Of a stretch of DNA of 34,603 nt, positions 3,476-26,667 are shown in pieces. The notes below the pieces were generated by a model that ran no database searches, had not been told where the DNA came from, and saw only the letters and a program-made list of their open reading frames with translations. The first letter of the stretch is position 1. Each line of letters starts with the position of its first letter. The DNA is taken from the IMG/VR virus record IMGVR_UViG_2541047739_000006. The stretch is one strand, 5' to 3'. Origin of the DNA: a virus. Its lineage: Duplodnaviria > Heunggongvirae > Uroviricota > Caudoviricetes. Made by a program: the position numbers and the translations under genes.

Positions 3476-3679
3476 ATGGCTAATTACAATTCATTAATTC
3501 GTCTCTCTGAAGTTCAAAGGCGAACTGGTTATAGCAAAGCATGGATTTATCGTCTTATTAGTCAGGGGAGGTTCCCTAAACAGGTAAAAATTGGAAGTCG
3601 GGCAATTGCTTTTGTTGAGTCTGAAATAGATGAATGGATTGAGAAGTGTATATTAGAATCTAGAGACGAGGTGGCCTGA
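3476..3679 (+). CDS. alpA: AlpA-family phage transcriptional regulator / excisionase-like protein
   Basis: 67-aa ORF with the ...AFVESEIDEWIEKC... motif characteristic of AlpA/Vis-family HTH proteins of P4-like elements. Confidence 0.8.
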   Translation: MANYNSLIRLSEVQRRTGYSKAWIYRLISQGRFPKQVKIGSRAIAFVESEIDEWIEKCILESRDEVA

Positions 3680-4110: not shown

Positions 4111-4122
4111 CGGAGACTGAAA

Positions 4123-4956
4123 ATGAACATCGAAAAAAGCAGATTAATTTCTGAGGCCGCCCCTCATCTGAACGCCTCTCTGGGCACAATTAACGGTAAT
4201 GAATTTGCCGCAATTGTCCCGGTTATTCCTGGTCATATCGGTGGGCGTGAAACCAATATTGTTAGCGCAAAAGCGTTACACAAAGCGTTGGGCGTGGGAA
4301 AAGACTTCTCTACATGGATCACTGATCGCATCTCTGAATATGACTTCACCATTGGGCACGATTACTCAGTCCATAAAACAATTTCCCCAAATTTGGGGAA
4401 AAGCCCGAATGGCGCGGCTTACAGCAAGATAAAGCACTCTGGCAGACCCGGCAAAGACTATCTGTTAAGTGTCGGAATGGCGAAAGAACTGGCAATGATC
4501 GAACGCAATGATCAGGGTCGCGCTATCCGCCGTTATTTCATCCAGTGCGAGGAAGAATTACAGCGTAGCGTTCCTGAAATCGCCGCCCGCTATCGTCGCC
4601 AGCTAAAAGCCCGTCTCAGTGCCGCAAACAACTTTAAGCCAATGTGCGATGCGCTGAATATGGCCCGTGCCGAGATGGGTAAAACGACGCAGCAACACCA
4701 CTACACAAACGAGAGCAATATGATTTCTCGTATCGTTCTTGGTGGGCTAACTGCTAAGCAGTGGGCGCGGATAAATGGCTATTCTGGCGAACCTCGCGAC
4801 CATATGAACGCAGAACAGCTTGAGCACCTCTCATATCTCGAAAGCACCAATATCACGTTAATTGATATGGGCATGGAATATGAGCAGCGCAAAGGAGAAC
4901 TCACCCGCCTGTCGCAACGCTGGCTCGCCAAGCGTCTGGAGGCGGTCCATGTTTAA
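4123..4956 (+). CDS. phage antirepressor-like protein (AntA/AntB-type N-terminal domain)
   Basis: 277-aa ORF; segment ALHKALGVGKDFSTWITDRISEYDFTIGHDYS resembles the AntA/AntB antirepressor domain; family assignment by motif only. Confidence 0.7.
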   Translation: MNIEKSRLISEAAPHLNASLGTINGNEFAAIVPVIPGHIGGRETNIVSAKALHKALGVGKDFSTWITDRISEYDFTIGHDYSVHKTISPNLGKSPNGAAYSKIKHSGRPGKDYLLSVGMAKELAMIERNDQGRAIRRYFIQCEEELQRSVPEIAARYRRQLKARLSAANNFKPMCDALNMARAEMGKTTQQHHYTNESNMISRIVLGGLTAKQWARINGYSGEPRDHMNAEQLEHLSYLESTNITLIDMGMEYEQRKGELTRLSQRWLAKRLEAVHV

Positions 4957-5131
4957 GCCGACAGGAACACCACAACCTCAAAAACGCTACAAAGATGCCC
5001 ACGGAGCACTCGTTACTGTCGAAAGCGTGTCTCACAACCGAGTGACGTTTTATCGCGACGGGTATCAATCGCCATGCGTACAACCGCTGGCGCGCTTCAT
5101 GAAGGAGTTCGCGGAGGTTAACAAATGCTAA
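4949..5131 (+). CDS. hypothetical small protein (60 aa)
   Basis: ATG at 4949 overlaps the upstream stop (ATGTTTAA), GGAGG 8 nt upstream; the listed ORF 4862..5131 is probably an N-terminal over-extension. Confidence 0.45.
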   Translation: MFKPTGTPQPQKRYKDAHGALVTVESVSHNRVTFYRDGYQSPCVQPLARFMKEFAEVNKC

Positions 5132-5626
5132 CCGTCCAGAAGAAGATATTTTCACTGGCTGGTATGTCACCAAAATCCAGCAATATGACAGCAAAGTCTG
5201 GCATTAATACAGCAGATACAAGCAAAGTTTATCATTTTCTGGTGGTAGGAGCGGATGCCTTAACTATGTCAGAAATTACGGTCGATGGTGTTAGCGTTGA
5301 GAAGGTCAGCGGCTGCGCCAGAGAATTTCTGGTCGTAGATGGCTTTCTCTGCTCGCGTAGTGACTCCACAAAAACCTTCGTCCATACGCGCGACGTTAAC
5401 GAAATGAGCGCGATGTATTGTGCATCTGGTGCTTCCAATACTGAGTTTTCGGAGTCCATAAAAAAGAGCTTGCCGTTATGCGGCAACACGGTTTATGGTT
5501 ATAAGGCACCTCATAAAACGGGTGCCGGGATTGGCGTCCTGAAAATTCTGAAGGCGACATATGACGCGCCGGGTGATGCTGCCAACTTACTGATTTAGTG
5601 TATGATGGTGTTTTTGAGGTGCTCCA

Positions 5627-5902
5627 GTGGCTTCTGTTTCTATCAGCTGTCCCTCCTGTTCAGCTACTGACGGGGTGGTGCGTAACGGCAAAAGCACCGC
5701 CGGACATCAGCGCTATCTCTGCTCTCACTGCCGTAAAACATGGCAACTGCAGTTCACTTACACCGCTTCTCAACCCGGTACGCACCAGAAAATCATTGAT
5801 ATGGCCATGAATGGCGTTGGATGCCGGGCAACAGCCCGCATTATGGGCGTTGGCCTCAACACGATTTTACGTCACTTAAAAAACTCAGGCCGCAGTCGGT
5901 AA
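5627..5902 (+). CDS. insA: IS1 InsA
   Basis: 91-aa [43 protein letters not shown]...; recognised IS1 InsA. Confidence 0.95.
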
Positions 5903-6324
5903 CCTCGCGCATACAGCCGGGCAGTGACGTCATCGTCTGCGCGGAAATGGACGAACAGTGGGGCTATGTCGGGGCTAAATCGCGCCAGCGCTGGCTGTTT
6001 TACGCGTATGACAGGCTCCGGAAGACGGTTGTTGCGCACGTATTCGGTGAACGCACTATGGCGACGCTGGGGCGTCTTATGAGCCTGCTGTCACCCTTTG
6101 ACGTGGTGATATGGATGACGGATGGCTGGCCGCTGTATGAATCCCGCCTGAAGGGAAAGCTGCACGTAATCAGCAAGCGATATACGCAGCGAATTGAGCG
6201 GCATAACCTGAATCTGAGGCAGCACCTGGCACGGCTGGGACGGAAGTCGCTGTCGTTCTCAAAATCGGTGGAGCTGCATGACAAAGTCATCGGGCATTAT
6301 CTGAACATAAAACACTATCAATAA
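5821..6324 (+). CDS. insB: IS1 InsB (expressed as InsAB' by -1 frameshift)
   Basis: 167-aa ...[47 protein letters not shown]...; recognised IS1 InsB. Confidence 0.95.
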
Positions 6325-6961
6325 GTTGGAGTCATTACCGACGCGCCGAGCGTCTTTTTTTATGTCGTAGGTCTGACTCACCCATTTTTTGGGCGTTGGT
6401 GTATAATCCAGCGCCTTTGTCAATCAATGGTGGCTCAGGCGGGGGCTTCTTCGGAAGCGCCGGTATCCTTCAGAGCCGGTTACGCCAACCCTGTCTGGGC
6501 TACCACCAGCGAAATTGGCGTTTCCGGTGGTAGCGTAACCTGCTATCTGAAGGAGGCTGCCACATGCTGGCTACTACCCCTACCCAAAAACCGCAATTTA
6601 TCTGGATTATCGCCGCAGTTCGCCGCGATTGCCCGACAATTACCGCCAAAATTCATCATATTGCTGCCGAGTCTGAACGCGATGCTCGCCGTTCTCTGGT
6701 GCGCGATCACGTCTGCTTTTTTGCTGGTCGTATCCGCATGGAGGTGGCACATGATTAAAACCTACGATGTGCATATGGATCCCCTCGAACGCACAAGCCA
6801 GATCATCACACTGACAGAAGTGATTAACGACATTCTGGTGAGCAACTCTCCCTCACGAGACGAAAGGCTGAAGGCGTTACTCGCGATATTGGATCTCGCC
6901 GTTCGTGACGTTCATTTCCTGCTGGAAGGTGGCGAAATGCCAGGAAAAACGGGGGCAACCA

Positions 6962-7156
6962 ATGAATAACTCAATTAATACCCCTCGCCTTACGTCCGCA
7001 CTTCAATTAATCGAGCAAGCAGCGGCTGTCCTGGTTGCTGTCAGTCTTTCGGCTGAAGAAATGGACGCTGCTGATGTCGTGGATGCGATTAAAGCGTGCT
7101 CATCTTTGGTTAACGATGCCCGTGCCGAGCTGGTAATTCTTGGGGGTGAAAAATGA
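6962..7156 (+). CDS. hypothetical small protein
   Basis: ATG 6962 overlaps the upstream stop; first gene of a chain of translationally coupled ORFs leading to the primase. Confidence 0.5.
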   Translation: MNNSINTPRLTSALQLIEQAAAVLVAVSLSAEEMDAADVVDAIKACSSLVNDARAELVILGGEK

Positions 7157-7416
7157 ATATCAACTTAATTTATCGTCATCCGTGTGAGCTGGAAATTGAA
7201 TCATTGCTGGGGCGTGAAGAGCCATATCCAGACTCATTCACTCCCGCAGATTGCGCGACTGAACGGCTTACCAGAGCGCGCACAGGTCTGGTTCATGTGA
7301 TGAATGAGATTGTTCCCTCGGTGGGAGGGGAACAGGCGACAGTAATCAATAGCTGGCTACAAAAAGTTACCTCCCTGATAGATATCGGTTTAATCGATGT
7401 GGAGAGTGCGAAATGA
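7153..7416 (+). CDS. hypothetical protein
   Basis: 87-aa ORF; start overlaps the preceding stop (ATGA). Confidence 0.55.
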   Translation: MNINLIYRHPCELEIESLLGREEPYPDSFTPADCATERLTRARTGLVHVMNEIVPSVGGEQATVINSWLQKVTSLIDIGLIDVESAK

Positions 7417-7634
7417 CCAACATCCAGCTCATTGAAGCGCAATGTCGCATCGAACAGGTTCAGACTGTTTTAGGGTTCTGGCTTGAAGGGGCCAGCCCCA
7501 GCAACAGAGACAAGTTAATGATTGGCGCGGTTATGTCACTGCTCAATGGCGTACCAGAAGCTATTCAGGAAGCGGACGAATTGTTGGGCAAATATGAGTT
7601 ACAGAATCATTCAGGCGAGGCGAAACATGAATAA
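7413..7634 (+). CDS. hypothetical protein
   Basis: 73-aa ORF; ATGA overlap with the upstream gene. Confidence 0.55.
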   Translation: MTNIQLIEAQCRIEQVQTVLGFWLEGASPSNRDKLMIGAVMSLLNGVPEAIQEADELLGKYELQNHSGEAKHE

Positions 7635-8229
7635 TTTCTTAACTTTCCATGCAGAAGCAACGCCTGACGGCGTAAACATCATGTACCGCAGCAACGATGG
7701 CATGACAGAACGCGTTGAGGCCGTCTCATATATTGATGCCGTAAATCGTCTGGATGCCGGGGATTATGACGATAAACCAGATGAAGGTATGTCAATACAT
7801 CTCGCTATTGCCGATGGCGGCAACCAGGGATATTTCGATTACACATCACAGCATAACGTCATTATGTGGAGATGGCTGATCGCAACAGTATTCATGCTGG
7901 AAATGAGAGAGGAAAACGGCACTGTCAGCATCATTGATGATACTGGCAATCCTTCCGAAGTGGCTGTTTATTCCAACGGCATCGTCGCCATGCCGCTGTA
8001 TCCAGTAGCAGAGCGCCTCGCTATGGCAAACAACATTGAGGGCGCGATGATAGAACGTTTTGGCATCGAGTCTGGCACAGAACGCGCCATCATTTTCTAC
8101 AGAGCCATGATGGATGTGGAACAAGGAGCACTGACTCCATTTGGTCGTGAAACGCTTGCTGAACTTCACAACAGCTTTATAGCTGAACTGAATGAAAACG
8201 GCATGCCAGCGGAACCAGTGACGCACTGA
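7627..8229 (+). CDS. hypothetical protein (200 aa)
   Basis: ATG 7627 overlaps the upstream stop; the listed 7522 start looks like an over-extension. Confidence 0.6.
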   Translation: MNNFLTFHAEATPDGVNIMYRSNDGMTERVEAVSYIDAVNRLDAGDYDDKPDEGMSIHLAIADGGNQGYFDYTSQHNVIMWRWLIATVFMLEMREENGTVSIIDDTGNPSEVAVYSNGIVAMPLYPVAERLAMANNIEGAMIERFGIESGTERAIIFYRAMMDVEQGALTPFGRETLAELHNSFIAELNENGMPAEPVTH

Positions 8230-8239
8230 GGATGGAGCC

Positions 8240-8581
8240 ATGATTACTAAAAATTTCCGACTGAATGCGCTGGCAAATAAGTATGCGTCGGCACTGTATA
8301 ACCACATTACCTCCACCAGCGGCGGGGACTATTTCATGGTTGATGCGGACGGCGAGGCCGTACGTGTGGAAATCGTCAATGGAGTAAAAGGCGTTCGCAG
8401 CCTGATCGATAGCTACACACTGGCAGCCATGAAAGTGTTCTACCCGCAGTGGGAAACCGTGGGGATCGAGCTTCTTGAGCGTTGCGTCACTAAGGACGGA
8501 TTGACTGACGTCGGGCGTGAGATATGGCAAAGCATGGTTAATGACATGGGCGCAACTGTAGCGGGAGGTTCTCATGCGTGA
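8240..8581 (+). CDS. hypothetical protein
   Basis: 113-aa ORF; GGAG before the ATG; same operon. Confidence 0.6.
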   Translation: MITKNFRLNALANKYASALYNHITSTSGGDYFMVDADGEAVRVEIVNGVKGVRSLIDSYTLAAMKVFYPQWETVGIELLERCVTKDGLTDVGREIWQSMVNDMGATVAGGSHA

Positions 8582-8945
8582 AAATGCAGAAATGGCGCTT
8601 AGCTCCGCAATCGGAGAGCAGGTGGCAAAGATTGCTGGTGCTGTGTGGATTCATAACCTTCATTCTACTGGTGAAGAGAAAATGGCAATTCAGACGCCAG
8701 AGGGACGCACCATTACTACATCTCTGAAGCCGTCAGATGTTTGTGATCTGATTTGCGCATTCATGTACCCAGCAATGAGGACTGTCCACGGCGATAAGTG
8801 GAAACTTGCGACAACCGCTGAATTTGATATGTGGCTAAACAATGATGGCATGCTGACTGATTACGGAATAACCAAGTGGCAGATGCTGGTTAGCCATATC
8901 GCAAACGCTATAGACCACGTGGGGTACGGTGATGCGAAACATTGA
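8574..8945 (+). CDS. hypothetical protein
   Basis: 123-aa ORF overlapping both neighbours by a few bases. Confidence 0.6.
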   Translation: MRENAEMALSSAIGEQVAKIAGAVWIHNLHSTGEEKMAIQTPEGRTITTSLKPSDVCDLICAFMYPAMRTVHGDKWKLATTAEFDMWLNNDGMLTDYGITKWQMLVSHIANAIDHVGYGDAKH

Positions 8946-11688
8946 TCTTATCCGTCAGGTTATCAGTGCGTCTGAAAACAACTGGCCTCATGTGCTGGGC
9001 TGCCTGAACATAAATGTCCCTGACTCTCCGCGCCGTCATGCTCCCTGCCCTGCATGTGGGGGCAAAGATCGATTCCGGTTCGATGACAACGGGCGCGGTA
9101 GCTTCATCTGTAATCAGTGCGGCGCTGGTGATGGGCTGGATTTAATTAAACGCGTAAATAACTGCGACACAACAGAGGCGGCGCTTCTTGCCGCTGATGT
9201 TCTGGGTATTGATTACCGGACAACGGAAACACCAGAAGCCACCAGCCAGAAACGGGAACAACTGGAAACCGAGCGCCAGCGACGCGAACAGGAGCGCCTG
9301 AAAAGGGCAGAGAAGGACGAACAACAAAGACGGGATACGTTTTCCCGTCAGTTTGATGACATGCGCAGAAAGGCTGTAAACGGCAAATCTGATTATCTGG
9401 TTGCGAAAGGGGTAGGTGATTTTACATTCCCCGTGTTGCCCGATGGATCTCTGTTGCTGGCGCTGGTGGATAAATCCGGCGCAGTCACAGCAGCACAGAC
9501 TATTACATCACATGGTGAAAAAAGACTCCTGACAGGTTCAGCAAAGCGGGGGGCATATCACGCCATAAACGCGCCAGAAACAACACAGAGCATCTTAATC
9601 GCAGAAGGGCTGGCAACGGCATTATCTGCCCATTTAATTCGTCCAGAGGCGCTGACAGTGGCGGCGATTGATGCCGGGAACCTGTTATATGTCGCCCAGG
9701 TACTGCGGGATAAATTTCCTTCAGCACAAATCATCATTGCTGCGGATAACGACCACAGCGAAGGAAGACAAAACACGGGGAGAATAGCAGCAGAAAAAGC
9801 AGCTTTATCTGTTTCTGGATGGGTGGCATTACCCCCGACAGATCACAAAGCAGACTGGAATGATTACCACCAAAAACACGGCATTAAATGCGCCACAGAA
9901 GCGTTCAATAAGTCAATGTACCAACCACAGGGTAATGGCGTGAAACATGAGCCACAGACCATTGAGGGAAGCGATTTTAAGGTTATGGATACCGACCCAC
10001 TGAAACCAAGAATAGAAAGCCGCGAGGATGGTATTTATTGGGTATCTCCGAGAGCTGACAGCCAGAGTGGAGAAATCATCAATAACGAAAGCTGGTTATG
10101 TTCTCCGTTAAGCGTTATCGGTACTGGCAGAGACGATAAAGACCAGTATCTCATTCTTCGCTGGCTGTCGTTTGGTTCTGAAACGCCGACAACCGCTGCC
10201 ATTCCACTGGCTGATATTGGTGAACGTGAAGGATGGCGCACACTTAAAGCTGGTGGGGTAAATGTCACGACCAAAAGCAGCCTCAGAGCAATACTGGCAG
10301 ACTGGCTACAACGCAGTGGCTCTCGTGAATTGTGGCGTGTTGCTCATGCCACTGGCTGGCAATGCGGAGCGTACATCATGCCTGATGGGGAAATCATCGG
10401 AACACCTGAAAATCCTGTGCTGTTCAGCGGGAGAAGCTCAGCCGCAGCCGGATATACCGTCTCAGGGAGCGCGAAAAGCTGGCGTGATAACGTGGCGCGT
10501 CTGGCCTTTGGTAACTATTCAATGATGACCGGGATCGGCGCAGCACTGGCAGCGCCATTGATTGGGCTGGTGGGCGCTGACGGGTTCGGCATTCATTTCT
10601 ATGAGCAGTCGAGCGCAGGTAAGACCACCACGGCAAACGTGGCGAGCAGCTTATACGGCAACCCTGATTTACTGCGGCTGACGTGGTACGGAACCGCGCT
10701 GGGGCTGGCAAATGAGGCCGCCGCCCACAATGACGGACTAATGCCGCTTGATGAAGTTGGTCAGGGCGCTGATCCTGTCAGCGTTTCACAGTCTGCCTAT
10801 GCGTTATTTAACGGTGTAGGGAAACTGCAAGGCGCTAAAGATGGTGGAAACCGGGATCTAAAACGCTGGCGTACAGTGGCAATCAGCACCGGAGAAATGG
10901 ATTTAGAAACATTTATCGCTACTTCCGGGCGAAAAACCAAAGCCGGGCAACTGGTGCGACTGCTGAATATTCCGTTGAGTAAAGCAGTACGCTTTCACGA
11001 TTACCAGAACGGAAAACAGCACGCAGACGCACTGAAAGACGCTTACCAGCATCACCACGGCGCGTCCGGGCGTGAGTGGATTAAATGGCTGGCAGACCAC
11101 CAGCAACAGGCTATTAAAACCGTTCGTGACTGCGAAAGCAGATGGAGAAGCCTGATCCCATCCGATTATGGTGAGCAGGTTCACCGTGTAGCCGCGCGAT
11201 TTGCCATTCTGGAGGCCGCATTGTTGTTAGGCGAGGTTGTAACAGGCTGGGATGCTCAGACATGCCGTGATGCGATACAGCACAGCTATAACGCATGGTT
11301 GCGCGAGTTCGGCACAGGTAACAAAGAGCATCAGCAGATTATTGAACAAACGGAGGCATTTCTTAATGCCTATGGGCTTAGCCGTTTTGCACCATTTCCA
11401 TACAGCCCGGCAGATTTGCCCATCAAAGATTTAGCCGGATACCGTCAGCGTGGAGAACATGACGAAAGCCCAATGATTTTCTACACATTCCCGGCCACAT
11501 TTGAAAAGGAGATCGCATGTGGTTTCAACGCAAAACAGTTTGCTGAAGTGTTGAAAAAAGCCGGGATGCTAACCCCACCAAACAGCGGTCGTGGATACCA
11601 AAGAAAATCACCACGTATTCAGGGACGACAAATAAACGTTTATGTACTCAATTACCAGCCAGGAGATTATAACTCATCTGAAGAATGA
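8929..11688 (+). CDS. P4 alpha-like primase-helicase (Zn-ribbon + TOPRIM primase + P-loop NTPase)
   Basis: 919-aa ORF; CPACGG...CNQCG zinc ribbon; TOPRIM-like ILIAEGLATALSA ... AADNDHSEG; Walker A SSAGKTT and Walker B LMPLDEVG; immediately followed by iterons. Confidence 0.88.
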   Translation: MMRNIDLIRQVISASENNWPHVLGCLNINVPDSPRRHAPCPACGGKDRFRFDDNGRGSFICNQCGAGDGLDLIKRVNNCDTTEAALLAADVLGIDYRTTETPEATSQKREQLETERQRREQERLKRAEKDEQQRRDTFSRQFDDMRRKAVNGKSDYLVAKGVGDFTFPVLPDGSLLLALVDKSGAVTAAQTITSHGEKRLLTGSAKRGAYHAINAPETTQSILIAEGLATALSAHLIRPEALTVAAIDAGNLLYVAQVLRDKFPSAQIIIAADNDHSEGRQNTGRIAAEKAALSVSGWVALPPTDHKADWNDYHQKHGIKCATEAFNKSMYQPQGNGVKHEPQTIEGSDFKVMDTDPLKPRIESREDGIYWVSPRADSQSGEIINNESWLCSPLSVIGTGRDDKDQYLILRWLSFGSETPTTAAIPLADIGEREGWRTLKAGGVNVTTKSSLRAILADWLQRSGSRELWRVAHATGWQCGAYIMPDGEIIGTPENPVLFSGRSSAAAGYTVSGSAKSWRDNVARLAFGNYSMMTGIGAALAAPLIGLVGADGFGIHFYEQSSAGKTTTANVASSLYGNPDLLRLTWYGTALGLANEAAAHNDGLMPLDEVGQGADPVSVSQSAYALFNGVGKLQGAKDGGNRDLKRWRTVAISTGEMDLETFIATSGRKTKAGQLVRLLNIPLSKAVRFHDYQNGKQHADALKDAYQHHHGASGREWIKWLADHQQQAIKTVRDCESRWRSLIPSDYGEQVHRVAARFAILEAALLLGEVVTGWDAQTCRDAIQHSYNAWLREFGTGNKEHQQIIEQTEAFLNAYGLSRFAPFPYSPADLPIKDLAGYRQRGEHDESPMIFYTFPATFEKEIACGFNAKQFAEVLKKAGMLTPPNSGRGYQRKSPRIQGRQINVYVLNYQPGDYNSSEE

Positions 11689-11706
11689 GCTTCTTCATGT
11701 GCGTAG

Positions 11707-11828
11707 AAAAGGTGTTGGTTCAGTTGGTTCAGTTGGTTCAATTTGTAAAGAGTATTGTTTTATAAGGATTTTATTCTTTTTATTGAACCAACACTGAACC
11801 AACAACACGGTATTTTGAACCAACACAA
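11707..11828. repeat. ori-like iteron module: 3 direct GTTGGTTCA, AT-rich spacer, 3 inverted TGAACCAAC
   Basis: Read directly: AAAAGGTGTTGGTTCAGTTGGTTCAGTTGGTTCAATTTGTAAAGA ... TTGAACCAACACTGAACCAACAACAC ... TTGAACCAACAC, directly 3' of the primase gene; same architecture as the P4 ori with type I iterons. Confidence 0.6.
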
Positions 11829-12143
11829 TGTGACTGAATTGATGCGCACAACACCTGGCTGGCATCAGAGAGTGTTTTACGAGACTTTCGTAAAATCCTG
11901 TGTACAAGGGCGTGACGTTTTTGAAAGTGAGCACTACGAAATTTTCGTAGTTCAGAAAACAGCCTCTGAGAAGTTGTTATGCCTGTTCAGCAAACCATCC
12001 GCATAGCTGATCGCGAATCAAATTACCAATGGAGCCAGAAGCAAGGGCAGAACTGAAAAGCGCCTGCCGTGAAGAGTAATGCGACACCATAAATATAGTT
12101 TTTAGAGTCCATAAAAAACCTGTCAAAACCTGACACACAGAAC

Positions 12144-12178
12144 GATGCCACCAGCTACTGAGCGGTGGCATTTTTTTG
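12144..12178 (+). terminator. intrinsic terminator
   Basis: GATGCCACC-AGCTACTGAGC-GGTGGCATC stem-loop followed by TTTTTTT. Confidence 0.6.
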
Positions 12179-12272
12179 TGCTATTTGTTTCATATTTTGC
12201 AATTACGATGATGAATATTGCGATTTGTGAAACTATAATAACTGTTGTTTTATACAGTTCTAAGGGGGCGTT

Positions 12273-12434
12273 ATGGCTATTTCAGTAAAGCCGGTATTGA
12301 TAAGTGAGAAGCAAATGGAAGCGATAAAGAAAATTCAGGAAGAGCAGCGTAAAAAATCAGGAATTGGAGTAGCGCCAACTCTGCATGAAATTGCACGAGG
12401 GTTAATAGATAAGGCGCTGGCAGGCTGTATGTGA
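12273..12434 (+). CDS. small ribbon-helix-helix-like protein (53 aa)
   Basis: AGGGGG Shine-Dalgarno 6 nt before ATG; beta-strand/helix/G-turn/helix pattern (VKPVLISEKQMEAIKKI...G...TLHEIARGLIDKAL); below the ORF-track length cutoff. Confidence 0.45.
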   Translation: MAISVKPVLISEKQMEAIKKIQEEQRKKSGIGVAPTLHEIARGLIDKALAGCM

Positions 12435-12450
12435 AAATGGATGGCATCGC

Positions 12451-12912
12451 ATGGAACTAAAATTTATTGATAACCCTGTGCGATTACAGGCCTTTCTTAA
12501 CGAGCCAGGCAATACCGAAAATATTGTTGAGCCGGGGCACACGTACTACATCAAGCCTGATGCGGTATATCTCGGCATCTACGAAGGATTAGTGCTGGCT
12601 GGCGTTCATGAAGTGCGTAACTTCTGGCATAGCGTTGTTGAATGCCATGCGGTGTACGACCCCGGATTCCGTGGTGAATATGCACTGCAAGGACATCGAT
12701 TATTCTGCAAATGGCTTCTCGAAAACTCACCATTCCTTAACAGCATTACCATGGTTCCTGACACCACGAAATACGGACGGGCAATTATCCGTTTGCTTGG
12801 CGCTACCCGTGTTGGTCATCTTGATGATGCTTATATCAGATGTGGTAAACCCGTCGGCGTAACGCTTTATCAGTTAACTCGGCAACAATATAAGGAATTC
12901 AGCGAATGTTAA
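12451..12912 (+). CDS. hypothetical protein (possible P22 gp14-like; low confidence)
   Basis: 153-aa ORF, first of a same-strand run of four genes whose sizes (153/225/249+/701 aa) parallel P22 genes 14-7-20-16 as I recall them; similarity not verified. Confidence 0.65.
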   Translation: MELKFIDNPVRLQAFLNEPGNTENIVEPGHTYYIKPDAVYLGIYEGLVLAGVHEVRNFWHSVVECHAVYDPGFRGEYALQGHRLFCKWLLENSPFLNSITMVPDTTKYGRAIIRLLGATRVGHLDDAYIRCGKPVGVTLYQLTRQQYKEFSEC

Positions 12913-13583
12913 TTACCCATATAGCTTATAAACATCTCAATCGTGCCGTATACGAAAAAGGCGGTGATGGTGGTGCCTCTAAAGCTCAGGCGAAGGCCCA
13001 GCAGCAGGCAATTGATTTGCAGCGCGAGCAGTGGAATACGGTGATGAATAATCTCAAGCCGTATGCAGAAGTCGGATTGCCTGCTTTACAACAACTACAA
13101 GGACTGATGACTCTGGAAGGGCAGAATAAAGCCGCGAATGATTTCTTTGGTTCTGGTTTATATAAAACACAGGCAGATCAGGCCCGTTATCAGAACCTTG
13201 TCTCAGCAGAAGCTACCGGGGGGCTTGGCTCAACAGCTACCAGTAACCAGTTATCTTCCATTGCGCCCATGCTTTATAACAATTGGCTCAGTGGGCAAAT
13301 GCAAAATTATGGAAACCTGCTAAATGTCGGGATGAATGCGGCATCAGGGCAGGCAACAGCAGGGCAAAACTACGCCAATAATACCGGACAACTCTTGCAG
13401 GGGCTTGGCGCTATTCGTGCAGGTCAGGCGCAGCAGCCATCCAGTCTTGCGCGTGGTATTGGTGGGGCGGCATCAGGCGCTTTAGCGGGTGCGCAACTTG
13501 GTTCCGTTGTTCCGGGTATAGGTAATGTCGCCGGGGCTATTGGTGGTGGGCTTATTGGTCTTGTTGGGGGGCTTGGATTCTAA
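12906..13583 (+). CDS. Q/G-rich hypothetical protein with glycine-zipper C-terminus (possible phage ejection/internal protein)
   Basis: 225-aa ORF overlapping the upstream stop; C-terminus GGAASGALAGAQLGSVVPGIGNVAGAIGGGLIGLVGGLGF. Confidence 0.65.
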   Translation: MLITHIAYKHLNRAVYEKGGDGGASKAQAKAQQQAIDLQREQWNTVMNNLKPYAEVGLPALQQLQGLMTLEGQNKAANDFFGSGLYKTQADQARYQNLVSAEATGGLGSTATSNQLSSIAPMLYNNWLSGQMQNYGNLLNVGMNAASGQATAGQNYANNTGQLLQGLGAIRAGQAQQPSSLARGIGGAASGALAGAQLGSVVPGIGNVAGAIGGGLIGLVGGLGF

Positions 13584-14327
13584 TGGCGACATGGCAACTT
13601 GGCGGGCTGCCTAGCATGGCACCGCAAAATGATAATGCTCCTCGTTCTTCCGTTCCTCAGCCTGTGCAGTATCAGCAGCAGCCAAACGTAGGTTTAATGG
13701 CGCTACAGGGGCTAAGAGGCGTTGCTGAGATTAATCAGCAGGCACGTCAACAACAGCGTAAAGCAGAGTTTCAGAAAGCATATGCCGGGGCTTTTGAGTC
13801 TGGAGACAGAAACAAAATGCGCAGTCTTATTTCTGAGTATCCAGAAGAATTTGAAAGCGTTCAGAAAGGGATGGGCTTTATTGATGACGACCAGAGAAAT
13901 TCTATTGGTCATCTTGCGACTAGTGCTCAAATCGCATCTTCGCTCGGAACTGGGGCATTTGGAAAATTCATAGCAGATAACGAAGATGAAATGCGTCGTT
14001 TGGGAATTTCTCCTGAGTCTGTTGCCGAAATGCATGTTAATGATCCACAGGGATTCCAGCGGCTTGCTGGTAGTATGGCACTGTTTTCTCTCGGTCATGA
14101 GAAGTACTTCGATATCAAAGATCGAATGGAAGGTCGGGATATTGAGCGTGGCAAGTTGGCAGAGACGATCCGCAGCAATCAAGCCGGAGAAGCACTTCAG
14201 GCGAGAGGGCAGGATATTAGCCGAGCAAATGCGTTAACGTCAGCATATGCACCAACAGCCGCAATGCAGAATTACAATCAATACGCGCAAATGTTAAAGG
14301 CGGATCCAGAGGGGGCTGCGGCATTTG
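13583..14327 (+). pseudogene. hypothetical phage-like protein, 3'-truncated by IS1
   Basis: ORF starts at the upstream stop (ATGG overlap) and runs into the IS1 end at 14328; the apparent stop lies inside IS1. Confidence 0.6.
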
Positions 14328-14342
14328 GGTAATGACTCCAAC

Positions 14343-14846
14343 TTATTGATAGTGTTTTATGTTCAGATAATGCCCGATGACTTTGTCATGCAGCTCCACC
14401 GATTTTGAGAACGACAGCGACTTCCGTCCCAGCCGTGCCAGGTGCTGCCTCAGATTCAGGTTATGCCGCTCAATTCGCTGCGTATATCGCTTGCTGATTA
14501 CGTGCAGCTTTCCCTTCAGGCGGGATTCATACAGCGGCCAGCCATCCGTCATCCATATCACCACGTCAAAGGGTGACAGCAGGCTCATAAGACGCCCCAG
14601 CGTCGCCATAGTGCGTTCACCGAATACGTGCGCAACAACCGTCTTCCGGAGCCTGTCATACGCGTAAAACAGCCAGCGCTGGCGCGATTTAGCCCCGACA
14701 TAGCCCCACTGTTCGTCCATTTCCGCGCAGACGATGACGTCACTGCCCGGCTGTATGCGCGAGGTTACCGACTGCGGCCTGAGTTTTTTAAGTGACGTAA
14801 AATCGTGTTGAGGCCAACGCCCATAATGCGGGCTGTTGCCCGGCAT
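14343..14846 (-). CDS. insB: IS1 InsB
   Basis: Identical 167-aa InsB as at 5821..6324. Confidence 0.95.
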
Positions 14847-15040
14847 CCAACGCCATTCATGGCCATATCAATGATTTTCTGGTGCGTACCGGGTTGAGAA
14901 GCGGTGTAAGTGAACTGCAGTTGCCATGTTTTACGGCAGTGAGAGCAGAGATAGCGCTGATGTCCGGCGGTGCTTTTGCCGTTACGCACCACCCCGTCAG
15001 TAGCTGAACAGGAGGGACAGCTGATAGAAACAGAAGCCAC
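14765..15040 (-). CDS. insA: IS1 InsA
   Basis: Identical 91-aa InsA as at 5627..5902. Confidence 0.95.
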
Positions 15041-15104
15041 TGGAGCACCTCAAAAACACCATCATACACTAAATCAGTAAGTTGGCAGCATCACCGGGTG
15101 ATTA

Positions 15105-17210
15105 ATGGCTAAAGCATGGAAAGATGTTATCGCCTCTCCACAGTATCAGGCGTTAGCACCAGAACAAAAAGCGCAGGCTCAGGAGCAATACTTCAATGAA
15201 GTCGTGGCCCCGCAAGCCGGAGAAAGTGTAGCGCAGGCTAAGCAGGCTTTTTATGCTGCCTATCCACTACCATCAACGAATGAAATAGACCGATCCCAAT
15301 CAGCAACTCAAAATATTCAACATACATCATCTGATAATTCTCTTGCGTCAGGGTATGCAAAGTTAGCTACTCAGCAAAGAGAGGGGCTTGAGCGTTCAGC
15401 AGAACAGGGAGCCAGTCTTGGGGCTGCGATGCGCGATGCTATAACAGGCGAAAGCCGAATGACTCCAGAGATGGAGAGACTGCAAAATGTCGACCTTGCC
15501 CCAGAGTTAACCTCACTCAGCATGGGTGCTCTAAAAGCTCGATGGTCTCAACTTTTCGGCTCTGACGCATCTCAGGAAAAGATTCTTCAGAGCATGGGAG
15601 CGAAATTAAGGCAGGATGAGAAGGGTAACACTATCGTTTCCCTGCCATCCGGTGATTATGCTCTGAACAAGCCGGGTTTATCGCCGCAAGACGTGGCATC
15701 GTTTCTGGCTAATGCGCTGGCGTTTACACCAGCGGGCAGGGCTGGAACGGTGCTTGGTGCCATAGGAAAATCAGCAGCTACAGATTTAGCACTACAGGGA
15801 GCCACCAGCCTTGCTGGTGGAGAAGATATTGATCCGTTACAAACGGTAATTTCTGCTGGCATTGGTGGTATTGGTAAGGGGCTGGAAAATACAGCGAGTG
15901 CGGTTTCGAGGGCTGTTCGTGGTGATATGTCGCCTGAAGCAAAGGCTGCTGTCAACTTTGCATCGGAAAGAAATCTGCCGTTAATGACCAGTGACATGCT
16001 GAAAGATAAAACCTTTATGCAGAGTCAGGCTCAGACATTAGGCGAAAGAGTTCCTTTTTTTGGAACCGGTAAGAATCGGCTGAATCAACAACAAGCACGA
16101 GAAAATTTAGTCAGAACATTTAGCGATGGTCTGGGTGGCATTTCTGATAAACAGCTTTATGAATCTGCGACTAAAGGGCAACAAAAATTCATTGAGGCAG
16201 CAGGAAAGCGATATAACCGCATAATTGACGCTATGGGGGATACCCCTGTCGATCTCTCAAACACGGTAAAAGCTATCGACAATCAGATTGCCGTGTTAAG
16301 CCGCCCGGGCAAATCTCAGGATAGAGCCGCGGTAAAAGTCTTGCAGCAATTTAAAGACGATATCACCAGCGGACCAAATGACCTGCGTCTGGCGAGGGAA
16401 AACAGAACCGATCTTCGAAAGCGATTTATGGCGTCATCTGACACTGTTGATAAAGATACGCTCCAGAAAGCCAGCGATATTATCTACAAGGCATATACGG
16501 CGGATATGAAAAAAGCCGTAGCCAAAAATCTTGGAGCAGACGAAGCCATTAATATGGCAAGGGTTGATCGGTCATGGTCTAAATTCAATGACATGATGGG
16601 AAGAACGCGCGTTCAAAAGGCAATAGCCAGCGGTAAGGCCACGCCTGAGGATGTAACAAAACTCGTTTTTAGCCAAAGCCCATCAGAACGTTCTCAGCTT
16701 TACAGGCTTCTGGATGACAATGGTAGGCAAAACGCACGAGCAGCCATAGTTCAGAATGCTGTAGATAAGGCGACTGATCCGTCTGGAAATATCAGTGTTG
16801 AGAAGTTTATTAATGCGTTACACCGGAACAGGAAGCAATCAGCAACTTTCTTTAAAGGCGTACATGGAAAGGAACTGGACGGCGTTATTAAATACCTCAA
16901 CGATACAAGACACGCGGCAAAAGCGAACGTTCAAAACTTAAATGGTCAGCAGCTTTATGGATTGTTAGTTGGTGGTGGCATCATAAACGCAGCAGTATTA
17001 GCGGGGATGCTAAAAACGGCTGCGTTTGTTGTTCCTGCTGCTGGTGCCGTAGGCGGAGCAGCGAAGGCATACGAAAGCCCTGTTATACGAAATGCCTTGT
17101 TACGTCTGGCAAATACGCCAAAAGGTAGCACAGCATATGACAGAGCGATCAGTACGGTCACACAATCGCTCACCAGAGTCGCACAGGCATCACAAAAAGA
17201 AGCTCAATAA
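15105..17210 (+). CDS. large A/Q/G-rich hypothetical protein (possible phage ejection / DNA-transfer protein)
   Basis: 701-aa ORF starting 10 nt after the IS1 end (in-frame TGA 2 codons upstream); low-complexity coiled-coil-like N-terminus and hydrophobic glycine-rich C-terminal segment. Confidence 0.65.
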   Translation: MAKAWKDVIASPQYQALAPEQKAQAQEQYFNEVVAPQAGESVAQAKQAFYAAYPLPSTNEIDRSQSATQNIQHTSSDNSLASGYAKLATQQREGLERSAEQGASLGAAMRDAITGESRMTPEMERLQNVDLAPELTSLSMGALKARWSQLFGSDASQEKILQSMGAKLRQDEKGNTIVSLPSGDYALNKPGLSPQDVASFLANALAFTPAGRAGTVLGAIGKSAATDLALQGATSLAGGEDIDPLQTVISAGIGGIGKGLENTASAVSRAVRGDMSPEAKAAVNFASERNLPLMTSDMLKDKTFMQSQAQTLGERVPFFGTGKNRLNQQQARENLVRTFSDGLGGISDKQLYESATKGQQKFIEAAGKRYNRIIDAMGDTPVDLSNTVKAIDNQIAVLSRPGKSQDRAAVKVLQQFKDDITSGPNDLRLARENRTDLRKRFMASSDTVDKDTLQKASDIIYKAYTADMKKAVAKNLGADEAINMARVDRSWSKFNDMMGRTRVQKAIASGKATPEDVTKLVFSQSPSERSQLYRLLDDNGRQNARAAIVQNAVDKATDPSGNISVEKFINALHRNRKQSATFFKGVHGKELDGVIKYLNDTRHAAKANVQNLNGQQLYGLLVGGGIINAAVLAGMLKTAAFVVPAAGAVGGAAKAYESPVIRNALLRLANTPKGSTAYDRAISTVTQSLTRVAQASQKEAQ

Positions 17211-17229: not shown

Positions 17230-17844
17230 TTAGATATCTCTGCTGTCTCCATTAGGAAATAAAAGATAATATGGATTTGCCTTTCTTGCTCTCCTTGCTT
17301 CACCCGGATACCTGTTAGTCAGTAGCTTGCATAATGAGCAGAGAACAACACTCAAGAAAATTCCGAATGAGAAGATCAATATCTCACCAAAAATCAATGG
17401 CGATATTAAATTTTCAGGATTTAATGATAAGTCAATGTTAAAAACATATTGAGCAATACCAGTAAGTATCAATAATATAATCCCTATGGAATACATTGCT
17501 GTTTCCCAAACATCAGACAGTCTATTTTTGAATTGTTCGCTGGAGTAGTAGTTTGTTATAAAGTCAGAAAAATCACTCTCATATGCATCATCTTTAGGTG
17601 ATGTTAGAAATCCTCTGTCTCTCCATACCTTCTCCCAATTAGTCGATTCTTTTTTTAAGGAAAAATAAATATGTATTCCCAAAAGGATAGCCAAAATTGG
17701 TGTTAGCTCTAAAAAATAGAATGTTATGGAATAAATAATACTGCCATGTTCAAACTCATCTGGGACTATCATGTATGCACAAAAATAAATTGAAAAGTAC
17801 ACCATGCAGATAGTTAGCAATTCTTTAGTATCTTTTCTGCTCAC
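17230..17844 (-). CDS. multi-pass membrane protein, AT-rich, unknown function
   Basis: 204-aa ORF with several hydrophobic segments (ICMVYFSIYFCAYMIV, LTPILAILLGIHIYF, IGIILLILTGIAQYVF, IFGEILIFSFGIFLSVVLC); composition sharply more AT-rich than its neighbours. Confidence 0.6.
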   Translation of the reverse strand: MSRKDTKELLTICMVYFSIYFCAYMIVPDEFEHGSIIYSITFYFLELTPILAILLGIHIYFSLKKESTNWEKVWRDRGFLTSPKDDAYESDFSDFITNYYSSEQFKNRLSDVWETAMYSIGIILLILTGIAQYVFNIDLSLNPENLISPLIFGEILIFSFGIFLSVVLCSLCKLLTNRYPGEARRARKANPYYLLFPNGDSRDI

Positions 17845-17957: not shown

Positions 17958-18342
17958 ACAGTACGCGCATATCCGCTTTATGTGAAACAGGAAGATTTTT
18001 CTGATATCACTGCCACAGCAAAACACCAATTTCGTGACCAGTACGCGCGCGAGGGGTATCAGTTGCAAAATTTTTTGCAACTGCGTCCGACCAGTACGCA
18101 CACGATGGCGGGGGATACCATAAAACTGTTCTCTACATGAGACAGAGTGGTGGTGATGTGTTGATTATCGGCGTATATGCGCACAGGACGCGCTATGACG
18201 ATGTTTTATGCGGGTACACCAATCACATGTATCTGGTGTGATAAATCGCGTTACATGACCTCTCATGTTGTGCTGGTGGTTATCACGACTTTCTGAATCT
18301 GGCCTTTGCCTGATATTTTGCGACAAGTACGCGCGCGTAGCA
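17958..18342. repeat. repeat family with alternating-CG palindromic core (CAGTACGCGC at 17958; GACCAGTACGCGCGCGA at 18036; GACCAGTACGCACACGA at 18089; GACAAGTACGCGCGCGTAGCA at 18322) plus an 11-bp inverted repeat CAGTTGCAAAA-tt-TTTTGCAACTG at 18060..18083
   Basis: Read directly; a fifth copy lies at 19712..19734. Confidence 0.6.
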
Positions 18343-18365
18343 TCGACAGCATACACATTGGATAT

Positions 18366-18587
18366 TCATTTTGTGACCAATGCGATAAGTAGCGGGATAA
18401 GAATTGATAAAATCAACAGGCCGATGATCCACTTTTGATTTTCACTGGCCTTATCTCTATTTTCATCAATCTTATCAATAATTCGACGCTCCAATCCGTG
18501 CATATCACCGCGAATGGCAATCATCTCATTGCGAACATCAGGGAAGTGGTTGGCTTGATGTTCAATGTGTGGCGTTCTGCCTTTCAT
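18366..18587 (-). CDS. small tail-anchored membrane protein (coiled-coil N-terminus + C-terminal TM)
   Basis: 73-aa ORF; charged N-terminal region then WIIGLLILSILIPLLIALV; resembles XhlA/holin-like small proteins, not verified. Confidence 0.5.
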   Translation of the reverse strand: MKGRTPHIEHQANHFPDVRNEMIAIRGDMHGLERRIIDKIDENRDKASENQKWIIGLLILSILIPLLIALVTK

Positions 18588-18666
18588 ATCTGATCCTCAC
18601 CTATCGTCACTACCTGCTGGTGTATAAAGGTATTGGCCCAAGCAACTTTCCAATGGGCACTCATGT

Positions 18667-19122
18667 TTATACGCTGACCTTACAATCAATCACTGCTTTT
18701 AGCTTTTCAGCATTGCTTCCCTGACGCTTCCACGCGCTGTAAATATCTTTATCCCACGCTTTACCAGCTTTTGTTTGATAGCCTGCTTCATTGATCCGTT
18801 CAGCTATCACACGCCCATTATCAAATCCCTGTTGGATGGTATCGGCAATGATCTTTATAACTGCCGTTTCGTTATATGGTTTTGGTGGGATGTTCGGCTT
18901 TCCGGCAATAAGCGACGCAGCGGCTTTTTCCATGCGCTCCACCAGCCCAAGCATTCGTGAATCAATAGACTTTTCCGGCTGCCCCAGCTTCATGCGAATC
19001 GCATCAACAAGCCAGGAGGTTTTATCTCCTCCAGAAGCGAGAACAGACCGATTAAACTCATCCTGCAATTCAGATGGGATGCGGAACGCGACCAGATTAG
19101 ATTTGCTCATTGCAAAGACCAT
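18667..19122 (-). CDS. ribbon-helix-helix (Arc/MetJ-type) domain protein with C-terminal extension
   Basis: 151-aa ORF; N-terminus NLVAFRIPSELQDEFNRSVLASGGDKTSWLVDAIRMKL fits the beta-strand/helix/G-turn/helix RHH pattern (compare P22 Arc/Mnt). Confidence 0.6.
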   Translation of the reverse strand: MVFAMSKSNLVAFRIPSELQDEFNRSVLASGGDKTSWLVDAIRMKLGQPEKSIDSRMLGLVERMEKAAASLIAGKPNIPPKPYNETAVIKIIADTIQQGFDNGRVIAERINEAGYQTKAGKAWDKDIYSAWKRQGSNAEKLKAVIDCKVSV

Positions 19123-19220: not shown

Positions 19221-19352
19221 TGTTGTTGGTTCAGAGCTGGGCTGTGTTGGTTCAAAATGAGTTGATGTTGGTTCAATATTTCAGAAAAAACACAATAAAA
19301 ACAACAATCTTTACAAATTGAACCAACTGAACCAACTGAACCAACACCTTTT
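19221..19352. repeat. crr-like second iteron module; inverted copy of the ori module
   Basis: The reverse complement begins with the same 43 nt as the ori module (AAAAGGTGTTGGTTCAGTTGGTTCAGTTGGTTCAATTTGTAAAGA), followed by an AT-rich spacer and three TGAACCAAC copies. Confidence 0.55.
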
Positions 19353-19663: not shown

Positions 19664-19960
19664 ACCACCAGAGGGAAATCATCCTCTGGCTGGCGGTTTC
19701 TGGTATTTCGGGACAAGTACGCGCGCGCGTAGCACCCAATCGGTGAGGAAATAGCGGCGACCTGAATGGTCAAAATCACAACGCAGCTATCCCCGTAAGC
19801 AGCGCTTAACGGAATAGCAGTAACCTGAATCCAGTGGGGAGGGGGTAGTCAAATCTCTACAGCCCTGACTATCCGGGACTGCCCGCCCCATCGTTTTTTT
19901 ATACCCGCGAAAAATGAAATTTAATCCGGGCGTGTTTCATTCTTCCAGAGGGTATGACGT

Positions 19961-22610: not shown

Positions 22611-23925
22611 ATTACACAGAAAGCCTTTCTGTAATGTCTCTCACTAAACTTTCACTAAACACGAGAATGATCGGTTTTATGTCGGATCAGATGCTAGAAA
22701 CAGCACCACGTCTCACAAGGACTGTAAGCGATGAAACCAGTGTTTATGCGGGTGCAGGTCAAAATATAGGCCAAAATCAATTTAACATAATAAACGTAAT
22801 ATGCACTAAGGAACACATAGAACGCCTTGAGTTGATGTATCAGGGGAAAAATGATGGATTTTTTACGTAGGAGCACGAGAGGGCTTCTGTTGACTTTTGT
22901 ATGCTATGAAACATAATTAAAGGTTTTTTTGTTTTTATTGTGTGATGTAGTGGATTACACAGGGGAATAGATTAAATGGTGTTCTGTTTATACAGGTTTA
23001 TTTGTTAGATCAACAATTTGGCATTTCTAAACAGATGTTTGAACGTTGCCAAATGTCTTGACAACACAAGAAAAGGGCTTGCTATGCCACGCATTACACG
23101 AAATAAGGCTGTAAAAACAAAATAAATTTTAAAATTTGCACAAACGAGAAAACTCGTTAAGAAACAAGCAGAACAATTTTTAGCCAACAATTTCTGATGG
23201 TGCTCTGTAGGCCGCACTACACAAGGATTTGCGAAAGTGATGTAAAAGTGAAGAAAGTAAGAATTGCACTTTTAAGCTACTTTTCATTGAATTTTTAGTA
23301 TGGAATTACACAGGAATAAGTTAGGGATATTCTATGATTTACACAGGGAATATAGGGGATTATGGCACACACATAGAAAGGCATTACACAGAGTGAGTGC
23401 TATGTGATGATTGGTAGTAACGGTAGGTCATAGTGAGCTAGGGGGTAGGTCACTGTGAACTACAATAAGACTATTAATAAAACTATATTAGATTATTAAT
23501 TAGATCATAATAATAATATTCTTTATATCTATATATATGATCTTTTGCCTTCCGGCGTTAGCTTCACTCTCTGGCAAGCAGCCTTACTCCGCTACCTTTC
23601 GGGCTTCGTGGCTGGCCCGTTCCGCTCACACCGAAAGCAAAGCGTTACTTTCTTCGTGTAACTTCGTTGGCGGTAACGCCCACGAAGAAATCTATTGCGC
23701 TGTGCGCAGTAAGAGTAATCACCTAACCAATCATACTGATTGCTTATGTGTTAACTCTCTCTAACTCTTAATTACCCTCCTACATTTAATAACTCTGTTA
23801 TTCTCTGTAGTTGTGTAATTACTCGAAGAGAGAGCGGCTAAAGCTCAATTACACTCTGCTTTCCTCGTGTAATTTCACTAAGCCTCAATACAATTTCACT
23901 TCCTACATTCTGTAGTCGTGTAATT
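22611..23925. repeat. dispersed iteron-like motif ATTACACAGG(G)AATA: about six forward copies (22611, 22954, 23093, 23305, 23337, 23383) then about four inverted copies (about 23655, 23813, 23866, 23916)
   Basis: Read directly; forward copies cluster upstream and inverted copies downstream of a GC-rich hairpin island. Confidence 0.55.
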
Positions 23926-24561
23926 GTTTTCGGTGGAAAAGCCAGAGGCGACACCGAAAGAGAATTCTGATCTTATTAATCTTATCTATCTTAGTTAATC
24001 TTCTTACTTATCTTACTTACTTTATCTACTTTATTATTAATAATAGCTTTATAAGCTCTCTGTGTAGCTCTCTGACGCAAGAAACAGCATTCAGGAAGGG
24101 AATCACCTTAGAAAAGGTGTTCTTTGCGTCATAATGTGTTTTATGAAGGATTCAGAGGTGTTTCATAACAGGAATGTATAGAGAATACTTTAGGTAATTA
24201 AAAATAAGGGGTCTAAATGCTTCTCTAACAGCATTAAGCAGGGTAGGGAATGGAAACGCATTGCCTACATATAATAAACTCACTACAGGGCTTTACAGGG
24301 CGTTTTATAAAGTGACTCTCTGTTTTATATCTACAATCACCTTTTCATATACCTAACAAATACAAAATAAGCCCCTTAAATAAGCCTCTGGCGAGCTAAA
24401 CAGACATTACATAAGAGAATGTATTGCTTTTATCAAAACTTCGTTAGAACGCGTTTTAGAGCGTTTTAGCGGATAATGAAGAATAGCACTACACAGAAGA
24501 GCACGAATTGCCAAGACAAATTATAACATGCTGAAAAAGATCGATTTTTTCGAAAAGGGTA

Positions 24562-24590
24562 TTGACAAATGTTTCTTTATATGTAATAAT
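24562..24590 (+). promoter_or_regulatory. sigma70-like promoter (TTGACA, about 17 bp, AATAAT) preceded by palindrome TTTTCGAAAA
   Basis: Consensus -35 at 24562..24567; AT-rich -10 at about 24585; about 115 nt upstream of the first gene of the operon. Confidence 0.35.
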
Positions 24591-24703
24591 AGGTATTAGA
24601 GGGACAGAAAAACATTCTTCTCTAAATAATCAAAATCAATGCACTTTGAAGCCGTCAGGCTTGCAAGGTGTTTTATTTCTTTTAACTGAATAAGGAGTTT
24701 TTT

Positions 24704-24892
24704 ATGAAATGGTTTACACCGGAGCACGTCGTAAAGGCATTTAAAAAAGGTGAGCTTACACGCCACCAAATAGTAATGAATCGTAATATGGCAAGGAGTC
24801 GAGGTTATCCAGAGCGAGCAGCTTGCTTCAATGAAGCACTCAAGATTATTGATGAACTAAGAAAAAATGAAAAAGAATCTGAAACAGAGTAA
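24704..24892 (+). CDS. hypothetical small protein
   Basis: 62-aa ORF with AAGGAG 7 nt upstream of ATG. Confidence 0.55.
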   Translation: MKWFTPEHVVKAFKKGELTRHQIVMNRNMARSRGYPERAACFNEALKIIDELRKNEKESETE

Positions 24893-24911
24893 AGAAGAGA
24901 AGGAGAAAACT

Positions 24912-25082
24912 ATGAGCGAAGCTACAGAAAAGAAAAGACAACCACGCACTTGCTTTCATATTCCTGATGAAGTATTTCAGGTGTTGTTTAAAGAAGCCAG
25001 AAGTAAACGTATCACTGTTACAGATTACATTCTTGATATGTTGAAAAGAGAGGCTGAAACACTCTCAAATAAAAGCAAGTGA
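24912..25082 (+). CDS. small putative DNA-binding protein (56 aa)
   Basis: AAGGAG 7 nt before ATG 24912; the listed 24867 start overlaps the upstream gene. Confidence 0.5.
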   Translation: MSEATEKKRQPRTCFHIPDEVFQVLFKEARSKRITVTDYILDMLKREAETLSNKSK

Positions 25083-25135
25083 TTTTTATCACCATAGTAG
25101 CGCCATAGAGCGTGATTACATCAAGGAGATTTTTA

Positions 25136-25828: not shown

Positions 25829-25844
25829 AAAGTAAGGAGGACTA

Positions 25845-26666: not shown

Positions 26667-26667
26667 T

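Follow-up and report, generated by a model that had tools for sequence, protein, structure and literature searches.

The window analysed here, the whole 34,603-bp stretch of DNA of this record, starts within proA and carries a tRNA-Thr(CGT) at positions 1369–1444 and a tyrosine integrase gene at 1610–2824, a layout annotated in relatives as a thrW-integrated island. Following the integrase, the island contains an HTH regulator, an antirepressor, an ash-family gene that is cut by a copy of IS1 (copy 1), small ORFs, a primase gene with Pfam Zn-ribbon, Toprim, and DUF927 domains (8929–11688), and a set of ejection genes whose order by Pfam and PHROG matches is DUF2824 (gp14-like), P22_gp7, Inj_translocase (P22 gp20-type), and gp16-type. 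The island (1369–21400, and especially 8929–17210) combines a P4-like integrase and primase with a P22-type ejection cassette; the cassette is present intact in at least 180 of 5,426 complete E. coli genomes, and a literature search found no description of a satellite-like element carrying its own ejection proteins.

Two iteron-like repeat arrays (GTTGGTTCA/TGAACCAAC) are located just downstream of the primase gene (11707–11827) and beyond the ejection genes (19243–19352). They are inverted and 7.5 kb apart, with a 55-nt arm that is 96% complementary, and recall the ori/crr pair of P4. A 28-nt motif ending in GACAAGTACGCGCGCG is present in three copies downstream of the ejection genes (18024–18051, 18310–18337, and 19700–19727; 75–100% identity), and a 204-aa ORF convergent with the gp16-type gene (17230–17844, minus strand) has a weak PHROG match to a SieA-like superinfection exclusion protein (E = 4e-4). 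After the island there is a second mobile element (25100–34603) which, according to the annotation of the near-identical AF3 record, includes a major-capsid-like gene (27941–28969), a baseplate-like gene (32474–33187), and a second tyrosine integrase gene on the minus strand that runs off the end of the window (33269–34603). A complete IS2 (1,331 bp; 30168–31498, minus strand) flanked by a 5-bp duplication, TAAAC, splits an ORF in this region (29274.. / ..32439).

A second copy of IS1 (copy 2) lies within the ejection genes at 14328–15095 on the minus strand. It is a complete 768-bp element of the IS1A type, the exact reverse complement of copy 1 (5572–6339, plus strand; identical at 768 of 768 aligned positions), and is 100% identical to an IS1 in AF3 annotated as 'IS1-like element IS1A family transposase', for which the RefSeq annotation includes a programmed frameshift. 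The terminal inverted repeats are about 23 bp long and imperfect (GGTGATGCTGCCAACTTACTGAT / GGTAATGACTCCAACTTATTGAT, matching at 18 of 23 positions); IRR (14328–14350) starts with GGTAATGACTCC and reads GGTAATGACTCCAACTTATTGAT from position 14328, and IRL (15073–15095) ends in GGCAGCATCACC at 15095. The insA gene (14765–15040, minus strand; 91 aa) encodes Zn_ribbon_InsA and HTH_Tnp_IS1 domains (Pfam, E = 1.3e-21 and 4.7e-31), and the 167-aa insB frame (14343–14846, minus strand), which is expressed as InsAB' via a −1 frameshift, encodes DDE_Tnp_IS1 (E = 2.3e-78). The A6C frameshift motif is present as TTAAAAAACTC at element position 305, and a promoter scan identified an inward-facing insA promoter-like site on the minus strand (15088 to 15061). 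In its length, terminal repeats, insA/insB' frames, frameshift site, and domains copy 2 is therefore an IS1 element.

The genes on either side of copy 2 are both of P22 ejection types. To its left, an ORF at 13583–14332 (plus strand) codes for a gp20-type ejection protein (injectosome translocase), with the Inj_translocase domain (PF16928) at residues 33–213 (E = 3.6e-59) and a match to PHROG 917 over positions 1–263 of 509. Full-length gp20-type ejection proteins are about 430–510 aa, and the gene in intact relatives has 473 codons. The window ORF has 248 native codons, followed by a glycine codon and a TAA that are supplied by IS1, the stop lying inside IRR; with its domain and its place between the P22_gp7 and gp16-type genes, it is a truncated member of the family. 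The original prediction, made from this DNA alone, had noted that the IS1 abuts a truncated gene and that the upstream ORF runs into its end, and the ORF does terminate 5 nt inside the element as a 3'-truncated gp20-type gene. To the right, the 701-aa gp16-type DNA transfer/ejection gene (15105–17210, plus strand) matches PHROG 770 ('DNA transfer protein', E = 3.6e-159) over its full length, is named 'P22-gp16 family phage DNA ejection protein' in the RefSeq annotation of relatives, and, as had also been noted, closely follows the IS1, with 9 bases between them.

Pfam and PHROGs gave these matches, and an NCBIfam search of the gp16-like and gp20-like proteins returned none. When a phage collection was searched, the left flank of the IS1 found no match, and the right flank matched P22/Sf6-like phages over its first 179 nt only, where it is 96% identical to the junction of genes 12 and 13 in Sf6-like phages; the match placed the gene in its family and yielded no structural comparator.

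Copy 2 lacks a target duplication. Its left flank, CGGCATTTG (14319–14327), is native gp20-like gene sequence joined to IRR, so that the left joint reads CGGCATTTG/GGTAATGAC, and its right flank is GGGTGATTA (15096–15104). The two agree at 4 of 9 positions, which is about chance (2.25 expected), and comparison at 8 and 10 bp gave no better match, in keeping with the original prediction that this IS1 has no duplication. Copy 1, on the other hand, has the 8–9 bp duplication of an ordinary IS1 insertion, in the form of perfect 9-bp direct copies of GACGCGCCG at 5563–5571 and 6340–6348.

We compared this locus with 5,426 complete E. coli genomes, using as a query the two flanks joined without the IS1 (2,033 bp). 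At least 180 genomes cover the query, with identities up to 99.2%, and the top-ranked matches all consist of two pieces spanning 2,700 bp, i.e. with 667 additional bases between the flanks. In the IS-free relative L001 (CP109924), for example, the sequence corresponding to the left flank of the window ends in GCGGCATTTG and is followed by 667 bp of gene and then by GGGTGATTAATGG. More generally, the relatives continue from CGGCATTTG into CGGCAGCGGCTGG and on for 667–669 bp up to the IS1 site, so that in genomes without the deletion the lost stretch joins the two flanks without a break. In SCU-172, which does contain an IS1 at this site, the left break of the window lies 669 bp upstream of the element, corresponding to 660 bp plus a 9-bp duplication copy; over the 8 kb to the left of the break the window has 0 mismatches to SCU-172. 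Since the flanks are separated by 667 bp in homologues rather than being contiguous, the deletion is real, and the prediction that an adjacent deletion had removed sequence at 14327/15096 is borne out: 667 bp (against IS-free relatives) or 669 bp (against SCU-172) are missing, representing the 3' half of the gp20-type gene and ending exactly at the IS1. There is no microhomology at the break (...CATTTG/CGGCAG versus ...GATTA/GGTAAT).

The difference between 667 and 669 bp arises because of a 7-nt indel. In SCU-172 (L005, 38060–38117, compared with L001, 13650–13700) the indel amounts to a single GCCAGCA unit in a short run of tandem repeats, close to where the gp20-type gene ends, and it shifts the reading frame. 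The deleted length is 669 bp if the indel pre-existed and 676 bp if it did not, and from this comparison the C-terminus of the gp20-type gene may already have been altered in this lineage before the deletion.

These comparisons also bear on whether a duplication was once present and decayed by point mutation, or was of an unusual length. The 4/9 match of the flanks is slightly above the chance expectation. However, CGGCATTTG is unchanged native sequence in the relatives, located 667–669 bp from the insertion site, and it is not a degraded copy of GGGTGATTA, whose true partner survives in SCU-172 (see below). The flanks are otherwise 99.9–100% identical to those of the sister genomes, leaving no room for five substitutions in 9 bp. 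The decay of a duplication is thus refuted, and we give it a negligible probability.

A search with the IS1 and 300 bp on each side recovered the complete copy 2 locus in none of the 5,426 complete genomes; the left junction (14327/IS1) is likewise in none of them, and when metagenome contigs were searched for exact matches to this junction, there were none. The right junction, IS1/GGGTGATTAATGG, is in three genomes (AF3, SCU-172, and MSB1_4I), in the same orientation as in the window and with left flanks that all differ from that of the window. These are close relatives: over the 5 kb to the right of the IS1, AF3 matches the window without a single difference, nine differences from the window are common to SCU-172 and MSB1_4I (with ten more in SCU-172 alone), and L001 has 61. 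The junction not affected by the deletion is thus the insertion junction held in common with relatives.

Each of the relatives has a different arrangement to the left of the element. In AF3 (OZ547117) the sequence left of the IS1 corresponds to the window up to position 3527, and window positions 3528–14327 (~10.8 kb, including copy 1) are absent; judged from this alignment, it is a 10.8-kb deletion from the same IS1 end (IRR). In SCU-172 and MSB1_4I the left flank of the IS1 is chromosomal (a LysR gene, fdeC, and rclABC), pointing to an inversion. The reciprocal junction in SCU-172, on the thrW side, reads CACTATGGGGTGATTA/IS1/GAATAAACG, with the island complete to the end of the gp20-type gene, and SCU-172 retains the partner copy, GGGTGATTA/IS1. 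Taken together, the SCU-172 junctions show that the ancestral IS1 was flanked on either side by GGGTGATTA, and the IS1 near the LysR gene by CGTTTATTC; as the latter IS1 is also present, un-inverted, in AF3, the SCU-172/MSB1_4I arrangement is a 23.4-kb inversion that took place between two inverted copies of IS1 already in position. It follows from the same junctions that the ancestral event was a simple IS1 insertion with duplication of GGGTGATTA at the gp20 stop/gp16 start.

On the comparison with these relatives, the right junction of the window is the original one, with GGGTGATTA the surviving copy of the duplication, and the left junction is secondary: IRR is intact at 14328 and directly abuts sequence from which it was separated by 669 bp in the ancestor. 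The ancestor is itself a reconstruction from the two junctions of the inverted relative SCU-172, and none of the 5,426 complete genomes contains an un-inverted simple insertion, in which a single IS1 would have GGGTGATTA to its left and to its right. Such a genome is predicted to contain GGGTGATTA/GGTAATGAC together with GCATCACC/GGGTGATTA.

The relatives contain other rearrangements associated with insertion sequences. Further IS1 copies are present past the position of the right end of the window, at 17984–18751 and 14512–15279 in AF3 (L006) and at 41621–42388 in SCU-172 (L005). The IS1 on the LysR side has CGTTTATTC as its ancestral duplication and has lost 31 bp on its IRL side in AF3, and another IS1, which truncates ecpC, is without a duplication in both AF3 and SCU-172. 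SCU-172 and MSB1_4I also lack the sequence corresponding to window positions 23755–30167, directly abutting the end of IS2, which represents a 6.4-kb IS2-adjacent deletion.

Copy 1 is a simple insertion private to the window: in SCU-172 the same site is unoccupied to the base, with one GACGCGCCG, and none of the 5,426 complete genomes contains the copy 1 junction. The two IS1 copies are inverted and were described in the original prediction as about 8 kb apart; the measured spacing is 7,988 bp (6340–14327), and the segment contains small ORFs, the primase gene, an iteron array, and the gp14-, gp7-, and truncated gp20-like genes. Only the array at 11707–11827 of the two iteron-like arrays is inside this segment. 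An apparent 780-nt inverted repeat was considered as a sign of related flanks and was rejected, as the alignment consists of the 768-bp IS1 and a few chance flank matches.

Homologous inversion between copies 1 and 2 could in principle have scrambled the duplications, given perfect 768-bp inverted repeats 7,988 bp apart. Such an event would however break both duplication pairs, and the copy 1 pair is perfect and direct. Nor do the inner flanks read as the reverse complement of the outer flanks, and the segment from 6340 to 14327 is colinear and co-oriented with IS-free relatives (97.8% identity to L001) and with SCU-172 (0 mismatches, 9 gap positions). The intact copy 1 duplication and the colinear segment refute this explanation, which we regard as having next to no likelihood, and since copy 1 keeps its direct duplication and the segment has the orientation of the IS-free and sister genomes, the assembled isomer is the ancestral one. 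The proposal in the original prediction that the segment is a substrate for inversion is right as far as potential goes: the two copies could recombine, and the same ancestral IS1 has inverted with another copy in the sister genomes, but the segment in the window is itself in the ancestral orientation.

Both the exact end at IRR and the intact element, together with the absence of microhomology, are the signature of an IS-adjacent deletion. An IS-independent deletion (by slippage or illegitimate recombination) that ended at the IS1 by chance would have to match IRR to the base, and there is no microhomology at the break; a composite transposon extending from 5572 to 15095 is at odds with the outer flanks, which differ (GACGCGCCG versus GGGTGATTA), and with an interior that is native island sequence in native order. 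Both of these were rejected and are very improbable. The factual statements of the original prediction proved correct throughout, and we consider it almost certain that the deletion is IS1-mediated, by a one-step or a two-step route.

The likely route is a single transposase-catalysed step of intramolecular transposition. Intramolecular replicative transposition is the established route for IS1: the transposase links the ends of the element to a target close by in the same DNA, and in one orientation the interval is released as a circle with one IS copy while the resident IS is fused to the target. At this locus, IS1 first inserted in the ordinary way into the thrW-integrated P4-like island at the overlap of the gp20-type stop and the gp16-type start, with GGGTGATTA as its 9-bp duplication. 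In the line leading to the window, InsAB' would later have directed the IS1 ends against a target ~0.67 kb upstream in the same DNA, and intramolecular replicative transposition would have proceeded to the deletion outcome, with CGGCATTTG as the retained copy of the deletion target. The 669 bp in between, made up of 660 bp of gene and the duplication copy on the left, was presumably excised as a circle together with one copy of IS1 and then lost, and the resident IS1 would have stayed joined via IRR to CGGCATTTG. The outcome is an intact IS1 without a duplication, a gp20-like gene of 248 of its 473 codons, and a gp16-like gene behind a presumably polar element. Other losses starting at IS1 ends in this lineage (10.8 kb and 31 bp in AF3) lend support to the one-step reading.

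The two-step route is the less likely of these. A second, direct IS1 would have inserted ~0.66 kb upstream, duplicating CGGCATTTG, and RecA-dependent recombination would have removed one copy and the interval. This yields the exact structure observed, with the left flank derived from one duplication and the right from the other; IS1 is active and hops locally in the lineage (copy 1 is private, 100% identical, and 8 kb away), and IS1 × IS1 homologous recombination did occur in the sister genomes, as an inversion. Nevertheless, the intermediate would show GCATCACC/CGGCATTTG, and no other genome among the 5,426 searched and no metagenome contig has an IS1 at the 14327 junction; the route also invokes a pair of events although a single one would do. 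In published work, the absence of a duplication is mostly attributed to IS–IS recombination or to a deletion next to the element, with such deletions often extending in several steps (PMC11708052). Deletions driven by IS1 are reported to begin at the ends of the element and to have a modal length near 1 kb, and in experimental evolution the most frequent result of IS1 activity is a short adjacent deletion of ~1 kb (PMC12065110), which argues against the two-step route. Whichever route was taken, the genome comparisons establish the ancestral state as reconstructed, how much was lost and between which bases, and which of the two junctions is original.

The gp20-type protein is predicted to keep the Inj_translocase domain and to lose its C-terminal 225 residues. 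The gp16-type ORF is intact, with 9 nt of native upstream sequence left behind the IS1, and is cut off from the upstream operon by the element; a consensus promoter scan found no outward sigma-70-like promoter from IRL toward the gp16-like gene. The ejection-gene cassette of the island is broken in the window's strain and is probably non-functional. For annotation, the 249-codon ORF at 13583–14332 should be treated as an IS1-truncated pseudogene of a gp20-type ejection protein, and no target duplication is to be expected at copy 2.

The locus is a clear and well-documented case of textbook IS1 behaviour, already known rather than novel, and it leaves what is known about IS1 unchanged. Less ordinary are the nature of the island and the number of outcomes from one IS1 in a tight clade, with the ancestral IS1 at the gp20/gp16 junction giving rise to at least three: a 0.67-kb deletion, a 10.8-kb deletion, and a 23.4-kb inversion. 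Four near-identical genomes allow the insertion, the small and the larger deletion, and the IS1–IS1 inversion to be reconstructed, and the locus is usable as a lineage marker. It is conceivable, though we think it improbable, that the varied outcomes reflect selection to disarm a satellite-like thrW island with a P22-type ejection cassette, in which case the cassette or the primase might be costly or interfere with resident phages; otherwise the outcomes would reflect neutral activity of IS1.

Among known systems, the closest are the classical gal and chl deletions next to IS1, which are IS1-promoted adjacent deletions formed by intramolecular replicative transposition. The locus shares with these an intact IS, a deletion extending from one IS end, one original junction, a lost duplication, and a size in the sub-kb to kb range, as well as nested or alternative outcomes from one anchored IS in related genomes (0.67 kb here and 10.8 kb in AF3). 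Nothing of substance differs, except that this is a natural isolate and not a selected laboratory event, and dependence on the transposase is accordingly inferred.

Homologous recombination between IS copies produces deletions from direct copies and inversions from inverted ones, with examples in Shigella genomes and in the long-term evolution experiment with E. coli. The 23.4-kb inversion in SCU-172 and MSB1_4I, with its swapped 9-bp duplications (GGGTGATTA / CGTTTATTC), is of this type, and the two inverted copies in the window are the same kind of substrate. The window differs in that it has no inversion, and no relative has a second direct copy that could account for the deletion.

The ejection genes resemble the ejection operon of P22 and Sf6 (gp14-gp7-gp20-gp16; Sf6 genes 12/13) in their order, in the TAATG stop/start overlap, and in the 96% nucleotide identity to Sf6-like phages immediately after the IS1. 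They differ from it in that they are situated in a P4-like integrase/primase island at thrW, without coat, portal, or tail genes between the integrase and the ejection genes, and in that the gp20-type gene is now a pseudogene.
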